This document shows, piece by piece, positions 8,606 through 12,790 of a stretch of 64,000 nucleotides of DNA. Both the position numbers and the translations under genes were made by a program. The notes beneath the pieces were generated by a model. That model did not search any database, had not been told where the DNA came from, and worked only from the letters and a program-made list of their open reading frames with translations. The stretch is from Escherichia coli (lineage in GTDB: Bacteria > Pseudomonadota > Gammaproteobacteria > Enterobacterales > Enterobacteriaceae), in assembly GCF_045037415.1 (NCBI RefSeq), contig NZ_CP173438.1; one strand, written 5' to 3'. Each line of letters begins with the position of its first letter. Position 1 is the first letter of the stretch.

Positions 8606-10093
<1,488 letters not shown>

Positions 10094-10117
10094 TAAACTG
10101 TAGCAGGAAGGAACAGC

Positions 10118-12790
10118 ATGACAGATGTAACGATTAAAACGCTGGCCGCAGAGCGACAGACCTCCGTGGAACGCCTGGTACAGCAATTTGCTGATGCAGG
10201 TATCCGGAAGTCTGCTGACGACTCTGTGTCTGCACAAGAGAAACAGACTTTGATTGACCACCTGAATCAGAAAAATTCAGGCCCGGACAAATTGACGCTG
10301 CAACGTAAAACACGCAGCACCCTTAACATTCCTGGTACCGGTGGAAAAAGCAAATCGGTACAAATCGAAGTCCGCAAGAAACGCACCTTTGTGAAACGCG
10401 ATCCGCAAGAGGCTGAGCGCCTTGCAGCGGAAGAGCAAGCGCAGCGTGAAGCGGAAGAGCAAGCCCGTCGTGAGGCAGAAGAATCGGCTAAACGCGAGGC
10501 GCAACAAAAAGCTGAACGTGAGGCCGCAGAACAAGCTAAGCGTGAAGCTGCTGAACAAGCGAAACGTGAAGCTGCGGAAAAAGACAAAGTGAGCAATCAA
10601 CAAGACGATATGACTAAAAACGCCCAGGCTGAAAAAGCCCGCCGTGAGCAGGAAGCTGCAGAGCTCAAGCGTAAAGCCGAAGAAGAAGCGCGTCGTAAAC
10701 TCGAAGAAGAAGCACGTCGCGTTGCTGAAGAAGCACGTCGTATGGCGGAAGAAAACAAATGGACTGATAACGCGGAACCGACTGAAGATTCCAGCGATTA
10801 TCACGTCACTACTTCTCAACATGCTCGCCAGGCAGAAGACGAAAGCGATCGTGAAGTCGAAGGCGGCCGTGGCCGTGGTCGTAACGCGAAAGCAGCGCGT
10901 CCGAAGAAAGGCAACAAACACGCTGAATCAAAAGCTGATCGTGAAGAAGCTCGTGCAGCAGTACGTGGCGGTAAGGGCGGAAAACGTAAAGGTTCTTCGC
11001 TGCAGCAAGGCTTCCAGAAGCCAGCTCAGGCCGTTAACCGTGACGTTGTGATCGGCGAAACCATCACCGTTGGCGAACTGGCGAACAAGATGGCGGTTAA
11101 AGGCTCTCAGGTCATCAAAGCGATGATGAAACTGGGCGCAATGGCAACCATCAACCAGGTTATCGATCAGGAAACCGCACAGCTGGTTGCTGAAGAGATG
11201 GGCCACAAAGTTATCCTGCGTCGTGAAAACGAGCTGGAAGAGGCGGTAATGAGCGACCGTGACACGGGTGCTGCGGCTGAACCGCGCGCGCCGGTTGTGA
11301 CCATCATGGGTCACGTTGACCACGGTAAAACCTCTCTGCTGGACTACATTCGTTCAACGAAAGTGGCCTCTGGCGAAGCGGGCGGCATTACCCAGCACAT
11401 TGGTGCATACCACGTTGAAACTGAAAACGGCATGATCACCTTCCTGGACACCCCGGGGCACGCCGCGTTTACTTCAATGCGTGCACGTGGTGCGCAGGCA
11501 ACGGACATCGTAGTCCTGGTTGTTGCTGCAGACGACGGTGTAATGCCGCAGACCATCGAAGCTATCCAGCACGCGAAAGCGGCGGGTGTTCCGGTGGTGG
11601 TTGCTGTGAACAAAATCGATAAACCAGAAGCCGATCCGGATCGCGTTAAGAACGAACTCTCCCAGTACGGCATCCTGCCAGAAGAGTGGGGCGGCGAAAG
11701 CCAGTTCGTACACGTATCTGCAAAAGCGGGTACCGGTATTGATGAACTGCTGGATGCTATCCTGCTGCAGGCGGAAGTTCTGGAGCTGAAAGCGGTACGT
11801 AAAGGTATGGCGAGCGGTGCGGTTATCGAATCCTTCCTCGATAAAGGTCGTGGTCCGGTTGCTACCGTTCTGGTACGTGAAGGTACTCTGCACAAGGGCG
11901 ATATCGTTCTGTGTGGCTTCGAATACGGTCGTGTTCGTGCAATGCGTAACGAACTGGGTCAGGAAGTGCTGGAAGCGGGTCCGTCCATTCCGGTGGAAAT
12001 CCTCGGCCTGTCCGGCGTACCGGCTGCGGGTGATGAAGTTACCGTTGTACGTGACGAGAAGAAAGCGCGTGAAGTTGCACTTTATCGTCAGGGTAAATTC
12101 CGCGAAGTTAAACTGGCGCGTCAGCAGAAATCTAAACTCGAGAACATGTTCGCCAACATGACCGAAGGCGAAGTTCACGAAGTGAATATCGTCCTGAAGG
12201 CAGACGTACAGGGTTCTGTGGAAGCAATTTCTGACTCCTTGCTGAAACTGTCTACTGACGAAGTTAAAGTGAAGATCATCGGTTCTGGCGTAGGTGGTAT
12301 CACCGAAACCGACGCTACCCTGGCTGCGGCGTCCAACGCCATCCTGGTTGGCTTCAACGTACGTGCTGATGCCTCTGCACGTAAAGTGATTGAAGCGGAA
12401 AGCCTGGATCTGCGTTACTACTCCGTCATCTATAACCTGATCGACGAAGTGAAAGCGGCGATGAGCGGTATGCTGTCTCCGGAACTGAAACAGCAGATTA
12501 TCGGTCTGGCGGAAGTTCGTGACGTGTTCAAATCACCGAAATTTGGTGCTATCGCAGGTTGTATGGTTACCGAAGGTGTGGTTAAACGTCACAACCCGAT
12601 CCGCGTTCTGCGCGACAACGTGGTTATCTACGAAGGCGAGCTGGAGTCCCTGCGACGCTTCAAAGATGACGTTAACGAAGTCCGTAACGGTATGGAATGT
12701 GGTATCGGCGTTAAGAACTACAACGATGTCCGCACTGGCGATGTGATCGAAGTATTCGAAATCATCGAGATCCAACGTACCATCGCTTAA
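10118..12790 (+). CDS. infB: translation initiation factor IF-2
   Basis: 890 aa [23 protein letters not shown]...; GTP-binding motifs GHVDHGKT and NKIDK; repetitive charged N-terminal region. Confidence 0.96.

Follow-up and report, generated by a model that had tools for sequence, protein, structure and literature searches.

A probable octad-repeat helical spacer, a predicted internal-start hinge and rare whole-unit length alleles in Domain I of Escherichia coli IF2

The 64,000-nucleotide stretch of Escherichia coli DNA analysed here (the window; contig NZ_CP173438.1) carries infB, in which a tandem array of 24-nucleotide units encodes eight-residue repeats that probably form a helical spacer. 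The array is followed by a predicted hinge at the two internal translation starts of initiation factor IF2, and the number of units varies among strains through rare alleles that presumably arose by slippage. We give this account as a whole a probability of roughly 85%. The interval singled out by an earlier sequence-only reading, 10410-10620, falls at the 3′ end of the E. coli infB sequence that encodes Domain I. The gene, the repetitive helical segment of Domain I and the internal starts are all already known and are textbook material. Relative to known E. coli infB, the allele in the window shows no differences, and what is added is how the repeat register lines up with the isoform starts, together with a census of unit-number alleles in other strains.

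Table 1. Coordinates of infB features and neighbouring or overlapping reading frames in the window.
Feature	Position	Strand	Details
nusA	8606-10093		upstream of infB; ORF list
infB CDS	10118..12790	+	translation initiation factor IF2, 890 aa; full-length IF2-alpha / IF2-1 from ATG 10118; ORF list
N1 subdomain	10118..10270	+	Pfam IF2_N, residues 1-51; PDB 1nd9 match at residues 2-50
IF2_assoc region	10283..10399	+	residues 56-94; Pfam PF08364, E = 2.6e-17
Repeat array 1	10403..10588	+	~7.75 tandem 24-nt (8-codon) units, codons 96-157; IF2-alpha only
Most accessible mRNA stretch (predicted)	10580..10639	+	within the first 1.2 kb of infB; holds both internal starts
Non-helical hinge (predicted)	10589..10609	+	seven codons, VSNQQDD; AlphaFold2 break at 158-164, pLDDT <50 at 160-163
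GTG codon 158	10589..10591	+	in-frame internal start of IF2-beta (IF2-2)
ATG codon 165	10610..10612	+	in-frame internal start of IF2-gamma (IF2-3)
Repeat array 2	10652..10753	+	24- and 21-nt units, codons ~179-212; in predicted helix 165-215; common to all isoforms
Spurious antisense ORF	10277..10921	-	214 aa from first start; 216-codon stop-free run; ORF list
Spurious antisense ORF	10267..10596	-	109 aa; ORF list

The product aligns over the full length of its residues 1-300 to the E. coli IF2 chain 3jcj_f (E = 4.9e-172), and the 369 N-terminal residues that were compared show no differences from K-12. Pfam domains occur in the order IF2_N (1-51), IF2_assoc (56-94) and IF2_N (314-364), with a beta hairpin predicted by AlphaFold2 at residues 58-92. 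ORFs resembling RbfA, TruB and S15 lie downstream, which is the expected operon context. Both nusA and infB are annotated in each genome retrieved, and an infB annotation is present in 5,425 of 5,426 E. coli genomes. The locus corresponds to the known Domain I region with its three isoforms (alpha from ATG1, beta from GTG158 and gamma from ATG165), whose starts lie at their published positions. An interaction with NusA has been reported for Domain I/N1, and the layout of N1 and linker found here agrees with that report (PMC12297416).

The units of array 1 read PQEAERLA, AEEQAQRE, AEEQARRE, AEESAKRE, AQQKAERE, AAEQAKRE, AAEQAKRE and AAEKDK, giving the octad consensus A-E-E-x-A-K/R-R-E, and those of array 2 read EAAELKRK, AEEEARRK, LEEEARRV and AEEARRM. 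The ORF, repeat, Pfam and 3jcj_f evidence thus bears out the proposal of the sequence-only reading that in-frame tandem repeats encode a charged stretch in the N-terminal region of IF2. The interval it gave covers a real array, although this array begins slightly earlier (10403) and a second one (10652-10753) lies beyond the end. It had also quoted two DNA strings as repeated; GCGGAAGAGCAAGC occurs exactly twice (10427 and 10451), whereas the second occurs once (10550), with a partner at 10526 that differs at 3 of 26 bases.

The expected repeat structure is evident on self-comparison, where a 24-nucleotide periodicity emerges with a lag-24 identity of 0.70 against 0.38 after shuffling. More exactly, DNA self-identity at this lag across codons 96-157 is 0.704 compared to 0.377 ± 0.039 in codon-order shuffles (z = 8.4), and none of 20,000 such shuffles attains the observed identity at this or any other lag. 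Tandem Repeats Finder reports arrays with a 24-nucleotide period at 10426-10482 and 10469-10583, and a repeat search finds eight copies in 24-nucleotide register starting at 10403, with further copies at 10652 and 10676. At the protein level, array 1 has an identity of 0.63 at lag 8, octad positions 1, 5, 7 and 8 are nearly invariant among 26 homologues, and the best period is eight residues in every genus with an array that can be delimited. The units vary at synonymous sites, their DNA identity ranging from 65 to 84%, and they have exact 5-15-nucleotide matches in common in 24-nucleotide (or 21-nucleotide) register; the longest exact DNA repeat is 15 nucleotides. When the protein is held fixed and synonymous codons are resampled, the lag-24 identity is 0.65 versus the 0.70 observed (p ~0.004-0.016). 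It is thus chiefly the protein sequence that maintains the periodicity, the DNA identity being slightly higher than the protein requires.

Structurally, AlphaFold2 predicts an uninterrupted helix at residues 96-157 (pLDDT ~80-86) and a second helix at 165-215 that contains array 2, in a model of low pTM (0.26) and mean pLDDT 70.9 from a class of methods that inclines to long helices for E/K/R-rich sequence. NMR work by Laursen and colleagues (J Biol Chem, 2003) reportedly found residues 98-157 to be helical with a repetitive hydrophilic sequence, and published CD and NMR work is said to describe the helicity of the segment as substantial but mobile and temperature-sensitive. The composition of array 1 is 30% Ala, 32% acidic and 23% basic. 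Array 1 has 17 charged i/i+4 pairs and array 2 has 20, and in every one of them the two charges are opposite in sign. Read modulo 4, the octad forms columns A, E-K, E-R and Q-E, with Ala at 12 of 12 positions of its column in array 1, and because this arrangement yields an Ala stripe flanked by alternating acid and base stripes, each i/i+4 charged pair could form a salt bridge.

These features resemble those of the single alpha-helix (SAH, ER/K-motif) spacers of myosin VI/X, caldesmon and some bacterial proteins, in the high content of Glu and Lys/Arg and in the opposite signs of the i/i+4 charged pairs; the only candidate here for a hydrophobic seam is the Ala stripe, and the predicted unbroken helix of ~60 residues lies between two functional modules. 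Unlike classical E4K4 SAH motifs, the IF2 segment has an unusually high Ala content (30%), a perfect Ala stripe and fewer basic residues. This continuous stripe could mediate helix-helix packing, in which case the helix might not be solitary. We infer that array 1 would behave in solution as a single ER/K-like helix of ~60 residues, about 9 nm long at ~1.2 nm per unit, and that this spacer would connect the ribosome-binding body of the protein to the N1 subdomain, which binds NusA and occurs in IF2-alpha alone. Against this reading, a recent preprint classes the Domain I region as an IDR on the basis of disorder predictors (bioRxiv 10.1101/2025.02.02.631968).

A more speculative extension, which we consider unlikely though worth stating, is that the octad array serves as a modular molecular ruler, each 24-nucleotide unit adding ~1.2 nm to the tether between N1 and ribosome-bound IF2. 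If this were true, natural alleles of 858-906 residues (-4 to +2 units) should measurably alter the early coupling of transcription to translation, adaptation to cold or tolerance of DNA damage, and would form a ready-made series with which to probe the recently proposed bridge between IF2-alpha and NusA. Given the role of Domain I in NusA binding and cold-induced condensation, the same alleles could show at little cost whether the length of the tether is important. In the same preprint, IF2 lacking its first 158 residues shows reduced phase separation (bioRxiv 10.1101/2025.02.02.631968). More generally, that preprint and a second source describe IF2 N-terminal extensions that are disordered or helical, promote phase separation and differ in length by lineage (PMC12919033; bioRxiv 10.1101/2025.02.02.631968). 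These extensions are the same region as the one described here, and the available text of both sources covers length differences between species, with neither the octad unit nor copy-number alleles within a species appearing in it.

The sequence-only reading had expected internal starts near codon 158 without placing them. They lie inside its interval, with GTG158 at 10589 and ATG165 at 10610, and their positions are equivalent to g474 and t494, where the mutations g474c (third base of codon 158) and t494c (second base of codon 165) abolish the IF2-2 and IF2-3 starts, respectively (PMC3334882). Ribosome profiling by Ribo-RET has likewise detected an internal initiation site in infB (bioRxiv 10.1101/520783). 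Outside E. coli, conservation of these start codons was judged from Val and Met residues in protein fragments. The boundaries of the isoforms coincide with those of the predicted structure, since helix 1 of the model ends at GTG158 and helix 2 begins at ATG165, and this precise match is a modest addition to a known gene.

The mRNA in this region is predicted to be exceptionally open. The mean unpaired probability of 20-mers is 0.019 at 10580-10639 versus at most 0.006 in all other 60-nucleotide bins, and the accessibilities of ATG165 and GTG158 fall at the 99.7th and 94.7th percentiles. The Shine-Dalgarno duplexes of the internal starts have energies of -3.5 and -2.3 kcal/mol, compared to -6.5 kcal/mol for ATG1, and because these pairings are weak, accessibility is likely to matter. 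The prediction is consistent with initiation at the internal starts, and the A-rich, unstructured mRNA of the hinge probably permits such initiation despite the weak Shine-Dalgarno pairing.

The same data raise the possibility that the repeats are kept mainly for a role in RNA, with structured arrays that bracket, insulate and expose an internal ribosome-entry site. Predicted accessibility is very low inside both arrays (0.0001-0.0008) and maximal between them at 10580-10639, as such an arrangement would have it, and the weakness of the internal Shine-Dalgarno pairings also fits. However, the units diverge freely at synonymous sites, and inter-unit DNA identity is almost wholly accounted for by the protein repeat. 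The strain SNPs seen in 10385-10790 are all synonymous and scattered, and thus give no sign that specific RNA pairs are constrained. Losses and gains of whole units as near as 25 nucleotides to GTG158 are tolerated, and a deletion that extends down to 32 nucleotides upstream of the IF2-2 start leaves expression of IF2-2/3 (PMC3334882). We therefore regard an RNA role as the main reason for the repeats as improbable and prefer a repeat maintained for its protein product.

Searching for junctions in 5,426 complete E. coli genomes revealed at least 13 distinct alleles with in-frame gains or losses of whole units. The 890-residue IF2 is the dominant form, and variants of 858, 882, 883, 897, 898 and 906 residues account for ~57 of the 5,426 records (~1%), about half of them from a single clone, comprising the Esc1-29 and CNR20191027 series. 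Changes of -96, -24, -21, +21, +24 and +48 nucleotides and a double +24 are represented, the +24, +48, -24 and -96 alleles falling in array 1 and the -24, -21 and +21 alleles in array 2. Fifteen loci were verified by annotated infB length and alignment; all are in-frame, whole-unit changes with an intact CDS, and every one has its breakpoints in direct repeats of 5-15 nucleotides. The internal start region is intact in all of the length alleles (858-906 residues). In some cases the same event is found on different SNP backgrounds: DETEC-S565 and M15 both have +24 at 10541, and AR_0149 and AH21H025 both have -21 at 10706. The protein accession WP_000133053.1 is common to O157 Al Ain, DETEC-S565 and 02B17CRGN002. 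Among the matches, no association of variants with host or source is evident.

The position of these breakpoints fits slippage, and we infer that replication slippage or unequal exchange between 5-15-nucleotide matches now and then adds or removes whole units in frame. The arrays resemble coding minisatellites (VNTRs) that change by slipped-strand mispairing, in having head-to-tail units, in-frame whole-unit changes, breakpoints in short direct repeats and identical events that recur in unrelated lineages. They differ from typical VNTRs in residing in an essential housekeeping gene rather than one for a surface or virulence protein, and in lacking phase-variable on/off switching. Because the infB units are only 65-84% identical in DNA, slippage would be rare, in keeping with ~1% of genomes being variant. 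The expected length polymorphism among strains is present (858-906 residues), and the description of the repeats as hotspots of in-frame length variation is supported in kind, with at least 13 whole-unit alleles and some on different SNP backgrounds, but not in scale, at ~1% of 5,426 genomes in which the 890-residue form dominates. IF2 length in E. coli is not strictly invariant, and these rare recurrent whole-unit alleles of 858-906 residues are mildly new.

The census covers in-frame events with at least 5-6 nucleotides of microhomology inside 10385-10790 of infB, and its count is a lower bound because DUST masking hides some duplication junctions, to an extent that varies with the adjacent sequence. 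The two junction searches are complementary, the CNR/Esc clone being found in one and lost from the other. The indel carrier N68 is among the listed matches of a megablast search with this region in E. coli genomes. Most of the 550 genomes that match the second junction query are false positives with synonymous SNP alleles (10495 C>T and 10690 G>A), which make units resemble each other and were removed with a nine-allele panel. The H208 junction match is likewise a SNP false positive. Two experimental-evolution papers that name infB concern the substitution K717E and an IS10 element inserted between this gene and rbfA, and have no bearing here.

Independent gains and losses recur, which might suggest an adaptive contingency or tuning locus whose unit number is often changed and selected, setting the tether between NusA/RNA polymerase and the initiating ribosome, or the IF2-alpha:IF2-beta ratio, by niche. 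Domain I has a distinct partner in NusA as well as cold and DNA-damage phenotypes, and array 1 differs by whole units between genera, from 65 residues in E. coli and the closest relatives to 73 in Atlantibacter and 85 in Proteus, as measured on homologues that are mostly N-terminal fragments and so give array length but not total IF2 length. However, a contingency locus is defined by high-frequency on/off or frame switching, whereas the verified alleles are in frame with the CDS intact, amount to ~1% of records and come about half from a single clone, with no host or source pattern among the matches. Array length is also held at 65 residues in the closest relatives despite divergence in sequence, which indicates stabilising selection. 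This constancy argues for a length constraint and does not by itself point to a function. Frequent adaptive tuning is therefore quite unlikely.

Work by Steffensen and colleagues on ten clinical isolates (FEBS Lett, 1997) reportedly concluded that IF2 is invariant at 890 residues, and the length variants could accordingly be sequencing or assembly artefacts of a repetitive region. Such errors do occur: the protein database holds frameshifted infB fragments that resemble homopolymer errors, and the match in Nissle 1917 (CP007799.1) was rejected as an assembly artefact, since it falls within a partial pseudo-copy that is marked 'incomplete, middle of a contig' and another Nissle assembly is wild type. 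In contrast, the changes counted here are of exactly 21, 24, 48 or 96 nucleotides at microhomologies, unlike homopolymer errors, and all variants have an intact annotated CDS. Several long-standing non-redundant protein accessions recur over unrelated strains, hosts and countries. Moreover, the 24-nucleotide units are sufficiently different from each other that ordinary reads span them unambiguously. An origin of the variants in artefact is very improbable, and for infB-based typing schemes and annotators these length variants are real.

The idea that there is no true repeat, only a low-complexity E/A/R/K/Q composition that is periodic by chance, draws on the strong bias of the segment and on exact DNA repeats that reach only 15 nucleotides, but it is refuted by composition-preserving codon shuffles that never match the lag-24 identity, a register that is exact across seven units and an eight-residue period that recurs across genera.

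The two antisense reading frames had been attributed to the repeats. This is right only in part: long antisense runs do exist (109 and 216 codons), but their length is unrelated to repeat structure. When synonymous codons are resampled with the protein fixed, the antisense run has a mean of 201 codons versus the 216 observed (p = 0.38), and longer antisense runs of 352 and 494 codons face parts of infB and nusA outside the repeats. Because runs of similar length persist under resampling and longer ones occur away from the arrays, repeat structure is not the cause. The cause of the antisense ORFs is the T-poor composition of the sequence (10.5% T).

Because the gene at 10118-12790 is infB, the stretch 10410-10620 that a sequence-only reading had singled out as tandem in-frame repeats corresponds to infB codons 98-168. 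The ORF list of the window contains the nusA-infB-rbfA-truB-rpsO cluster of E. coli, and infB is annotated on the same DNA in 5,425 of 5,426 complete E. coli genomes. Residues 1-300 of IF2 give a full-length match to the E. coli IF2 chain of PDB 3jcj, and residues 2-50 match the structure of the N1 domain (1nd9). The N-terminal 369 residues are identical to those of K-12, with only synonymous nucleotide differences. The assignment to a charged segment of the IF2 N-terminal domain is correct, although this feature was already known. Published work already covers infB, the repetitive helical part of its Domain I, all three isoforms, and the differences in the N-terminal extension between species (PMC3334882, PMC12297416, PMC12919033, bioRxiv 10.1101/2025.02.02.631968, bioRxiv 10.1101/520783). 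The additions made here are small, namely the exact register of the repeats, predicted helices and isoform starts, and a verified catalogue of natural unit-number alleles.

A repeat search finds eight copies in exact 24-nt register from 10403, and Tandem Repeats Finder reports 24-nt-period arrays at 10426-10482 and 10469-10583, with more at 10670-10753. DNA self-identity of the first array (array 1) is 0.704 at lag 24 and 0.62 at lag 48, compared to ~0.3-0.4 at other in-frame lags. Codon-order shuffles yield 0.377 +/- 0.039 at lag 24, and none of 20,000 reached 0.704 at this or any other lag, which bears out the claim of tandem repetition. One of two strings quoted as repeated does occur twice exactly (10427 and 10451), whereas the other has a single exact occurrence and a partner matching 23 of 26 bases. 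The longest exact repeat in array 1 is only 15 nt. Since synonymous resampling with the protein held fixed already gives an expected lag-24 identity of 0.65 (observed 0.70, p ~0.004-0.016), the DNA repeat is mostly a shadow of the protein repeat, and any extra DNA-level similarity is slight. Tandem Repeats Finder also reports a weak third repeat at 10835-10871 (18-nt period, 2.1 copies, 78% match).

At the protein level, Ala at positions 1 and 5, Arg at position 7, and Glu at position 8 of the octad, the 8-codon repeat unit, are nearly invariant among 26 homologues. Read modulo 4, the E. coli array resolves into four columns: AAAAAAAAAAAA, EQEREKQEAKAK, ERERERQRERER, and QEQESEKEQEQE. All charged i/i+4 pairs are of opposite sign (17/17 in array 1 and 20/20 in array 2), and the arrays thus have the charge pattern by which single alpha-helix (ER/K-type) spacers are built. 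AlphaFold2, supplied with an alignment of 26 sequences, places an uninterrupted helix at residues 96-157 (pLDDT ~80-86) that coincides exactly with array 1, a low-confidence gap at residues 158-164, and a second helix at residues 165-215 that includes array 2. Global confidence is modest (mean pLDDT 70.9, pTM 0.26), and therefore we treat the helix as predicted. In NMR work by Laursen et al. (2003), residues 98-157 reportedly form a helix of repetitive hydrophilic sequence. A flexible linker joins N1, the N-terminal subdomain of Domain I, to the remainder of IF2 (PMC12297416), and a 2025 preprint describes strongly reduced phase separation upon removal of the first 158 residues (bioRxiv 10.1101/2025.02.02.631968). 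We infer that array 1 is the semi-rigid portion of a tether linking N1 to the ribosome-binding body of IF2, and that it would span roughly 9 nm, or ~1.2 nm per unit.

Internal in-frame starts had been expected near codon 158, and both GTG158 and ATG165 were located at positions that fit the mutations g474c and t494c, which abolish the truncated IF2 isoforms (PMC3334882); g474 is the third base of codon 158 and t494 the second base of codon 165. An internal infB start site has also been seen by Ribo-RET profiling (bioRxiv 10.1101/520783). Given the predicted helices, the IF2-beta start would mark the end of the first and the IF2-gamma start the beginning of the second. In an RNAplfold-type calculation, accessibility over the first 1.2 kb of infB peaks in the 60-nt bin 10580-10639, ATG165 and GTG158 rank at the 99.7th and 94.7th percentiles, and low accessibility is predicted for the arrays on both sides. 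Anti-Shine-Dalgarno pairing at the internal starts is weak even in the best duplexes (-3.5 and -2.3 kcal/mol versus -6.5 for ATG1).

The repeats had also been proposed as a hotspot for in-frame length variation. Among the matches listed, sampled evenly across 5,425 genomes, the wild-type length was found throughout except in strain N68. For a census of rare alleles, we relied on a synthetic query comprising the junction sequences of all in-frame deletions and duplications in 10385-10790 that have direct repeats of 5-6 nt or more at their ends, with flanks too short for the wild type to seed a 28-mer. In a local simulation, 219 of 225 variants were detectable and the wild type gave 0 matches. 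The first database search matched 550 genomes, most of them false positives caused by synonymous SNP alleles, but it brought out one genuine class, the 24-nt array 2 deletion of CNR20191027 and 28 near-identical Esc genomes. A second run, omitting junctions seeded by a nine-allele panel, returned 30 records, and at least one representative of every junction class was checked by annotated CDS length and alignment. The H208 record proved to be a SNP false positive, and a Nissle 1917 record (NZ_CP007799.1, 5112066-5113503) a pseudo-copy in a poor assembly. The latter, a partial nusA-infB pseudo-copy in a 5.44-Mb assembly, is annotated 'incomplete, middle of a contig' and has the junction of a 24-nt deletion; because another Nissle assembly is wild type, it probably arose in assembly.

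The proposal holds in part. There are at least 13 distinct length alleles, in frame and whole-unit without exception, a lower bound biased by a design blind to events without microhomology, out of frame, or elsewhere in the gene. However, variants total only ~57 records (~1%), roughly half from a single clone. This clone comprises CNR20191027 and 28-29 near-identical 5.156-Mb Esc genomes (Esc1-Esc29, NZ_OZ3692xx-OZ3694xx). In CNR20191027 (the one Esc-series genome aligned), the first 1.3 kb of infB is identical to the window apart from the 24-nt deletion, and the strain behind the window may be of this lineage too. The N68 deletion removes four units cleanly and in frame at a junction within 10-nt microhomology, and its IF2 is annotated as intact. 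Different SNP backgrounds share the +24 event at 10541 (DETEC-S565 and M15) and the -21 event at 10706 (AR_0149 and AH21H025), which indicates that length events are recurrent. Independent records are more numerous in classes with longer microhomology (11-15 nt), as slippage would predict. None of the alleles found touches 10565-10612, around the internal starts. SNPs within 10385-10790 are all synonymous in the nine E. coli alleles compared (loci L002, L003, and L005-L011). Several (10495 C>T, 10690 G>A, and 10540 G>A) bring one unit closer to its neighbour, whether by chance or perhaps through short gene-conversion tracts between units. Ten isolates in an older survey reportedly had invariant N-terminal domains. 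Our literature search for the octad unit or within-species copy-number reports gave nothing relevant, and neither is described in the accessible portions of recent comparative papers (PMC12919033, bioRxiv 10.1101/2025.02.02.631968).

Features of infB and its length alleles (wild-type IF2, 890 aa; interval of the sequence-only reading, 10410-10620)
Feature	Position	Strand	Details
infB	10118-12790	+	890-codon ORF
IF2_N (Pfam)	residues 1-51
IF2_assoc (Pfam)	residues 56-94
Second IF2_N (Pfam)	residues 314-364
Array 1	10403-10588, codons 96-157	+	PQEAERLA / AEEQAQRE / AEEQARRE / AEESAKRE / AQQKAERE / AAEQAKRE / AAEQAKRE / AAEKDK
GTG, codon 158	10589-10591	+	within 10410-10620
ATG, codon 165	10610-10612	+	within 10410-10620
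Array 2	10652-10753	+	EAAELKRK / AEEEARRK / LEEEARRV / AEEARRM; outside 10410-10620
Array 1, -96	10443		N68; 858 aa
Array 1, -24	10426		Z1323PEC0008; 882 aa
Array 1, -24	10517		2824; 882 aa
Array 1, -24	10529		APEC E19025; 882 aa
Array 1, -24	10541		bR_120_Kylling; 882 aa
Array 1, +24	10426		BS74R-D; 898 aa
Array 1, +24	10517		02B17CRGN002; 898 aa
Array 1, +24	10529		O157 Al Ain; 898 aa
Array 1, +24	10541		DETEC-S565; 898 aa
Array 1, +48	10515		OkiPb01695; 906 aa
Array 1, two separate +24 events			M15; 906 aa
Array 2, -24	10691		CNR20191027 (L004) and Esc clones; 882 aa, WP_032325647.1
Array 2, -21	10706		AR_0149, AH21H025; 883 aa
Array 2, +21	10706		CMZE046; 897 aa

Between genera, array length was measured in N-terminal protein-database fragments, with the conserved VRKKRTF motif and the Lys-Val of the IF2-beta start as end points, and an 8-residue period fits best in every fragment where the array can be delimited. 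E. coli and its eight closest matches (84-95% identity; some labelled Citrobacter or Leclercia) have a segment of 65 residues; Atlantibacter and another lineage have 73, or one extra unit, a Pantoea-like group 58-67, and Proteus-like sequences 76-85. Array length thus stays the same among the closest relatives although their sequences have diverged, and shifts by about whole units farther off. This pattern, together with a variant frequency of only 1% within E. coli, favours mutational input that stabilising selection filters over an adaptive switch. Compared with E. coli, a Citrobacter MAG fragment (P0009) lacks VAEE in array 2, which amounts to 12 nt in frame, and so small in-frame array indels also occur in other genera.

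The repeats had further been held to create long antisense ORFs. Stop-free antisense runs of 216 and 109 codons do exist there, but their cause is composition, not repetition, and there is no sign that they are genes. The sense strand is only 10.5% T in this region, and there is consequently almost no TTA, CTA, or TCA to act as a stop codon on the antisense strand. When synonymous codons are resampled for the same protein, the longest run averages 201 codons (p = 0.38). Runs that exceed those of the repeat region lie opposite non-repeat DNA in nusA (494 codons, 8795-10276, -) and the infB G-domain region (352 codons, 11477-12532, -), and they look like a general property of these highly expressed genes rather than a sign of antisense genes.

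Several database products break within the arrays. E. coli 'IF-2 associated domain' products of 165-166 aa (P0067, P0070, and P0071), some on complete chromosomes, diverge past codon 131 after losing one A from an A5 run, and the A5 run that follows has another -1 change (10504-10508 and 10578-10582 in the window). Such a pair of homopolymer changes, both within 80 nt, suggests sequencing errors; were they real, these strains would make IF2-beta and IF2-gamma only. Truncated E. coli products of 268-310 aa (P0041, P0032, and P0025) have frameshifts within the GAA runs of array 2 (about 10700-10750). These are very likely assembly errors because, unlike the array 1 frameshifts, they would also destroy the beta and gamma isoforms. 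Finally, a 523-aa product from a Logan assembly (P0043) joins IF2 residues 1-196, breaking inside array 2, to an unrelated C-terminal region that presumably resembles argininosuccinate synthase, and is probably an assembly chimera.
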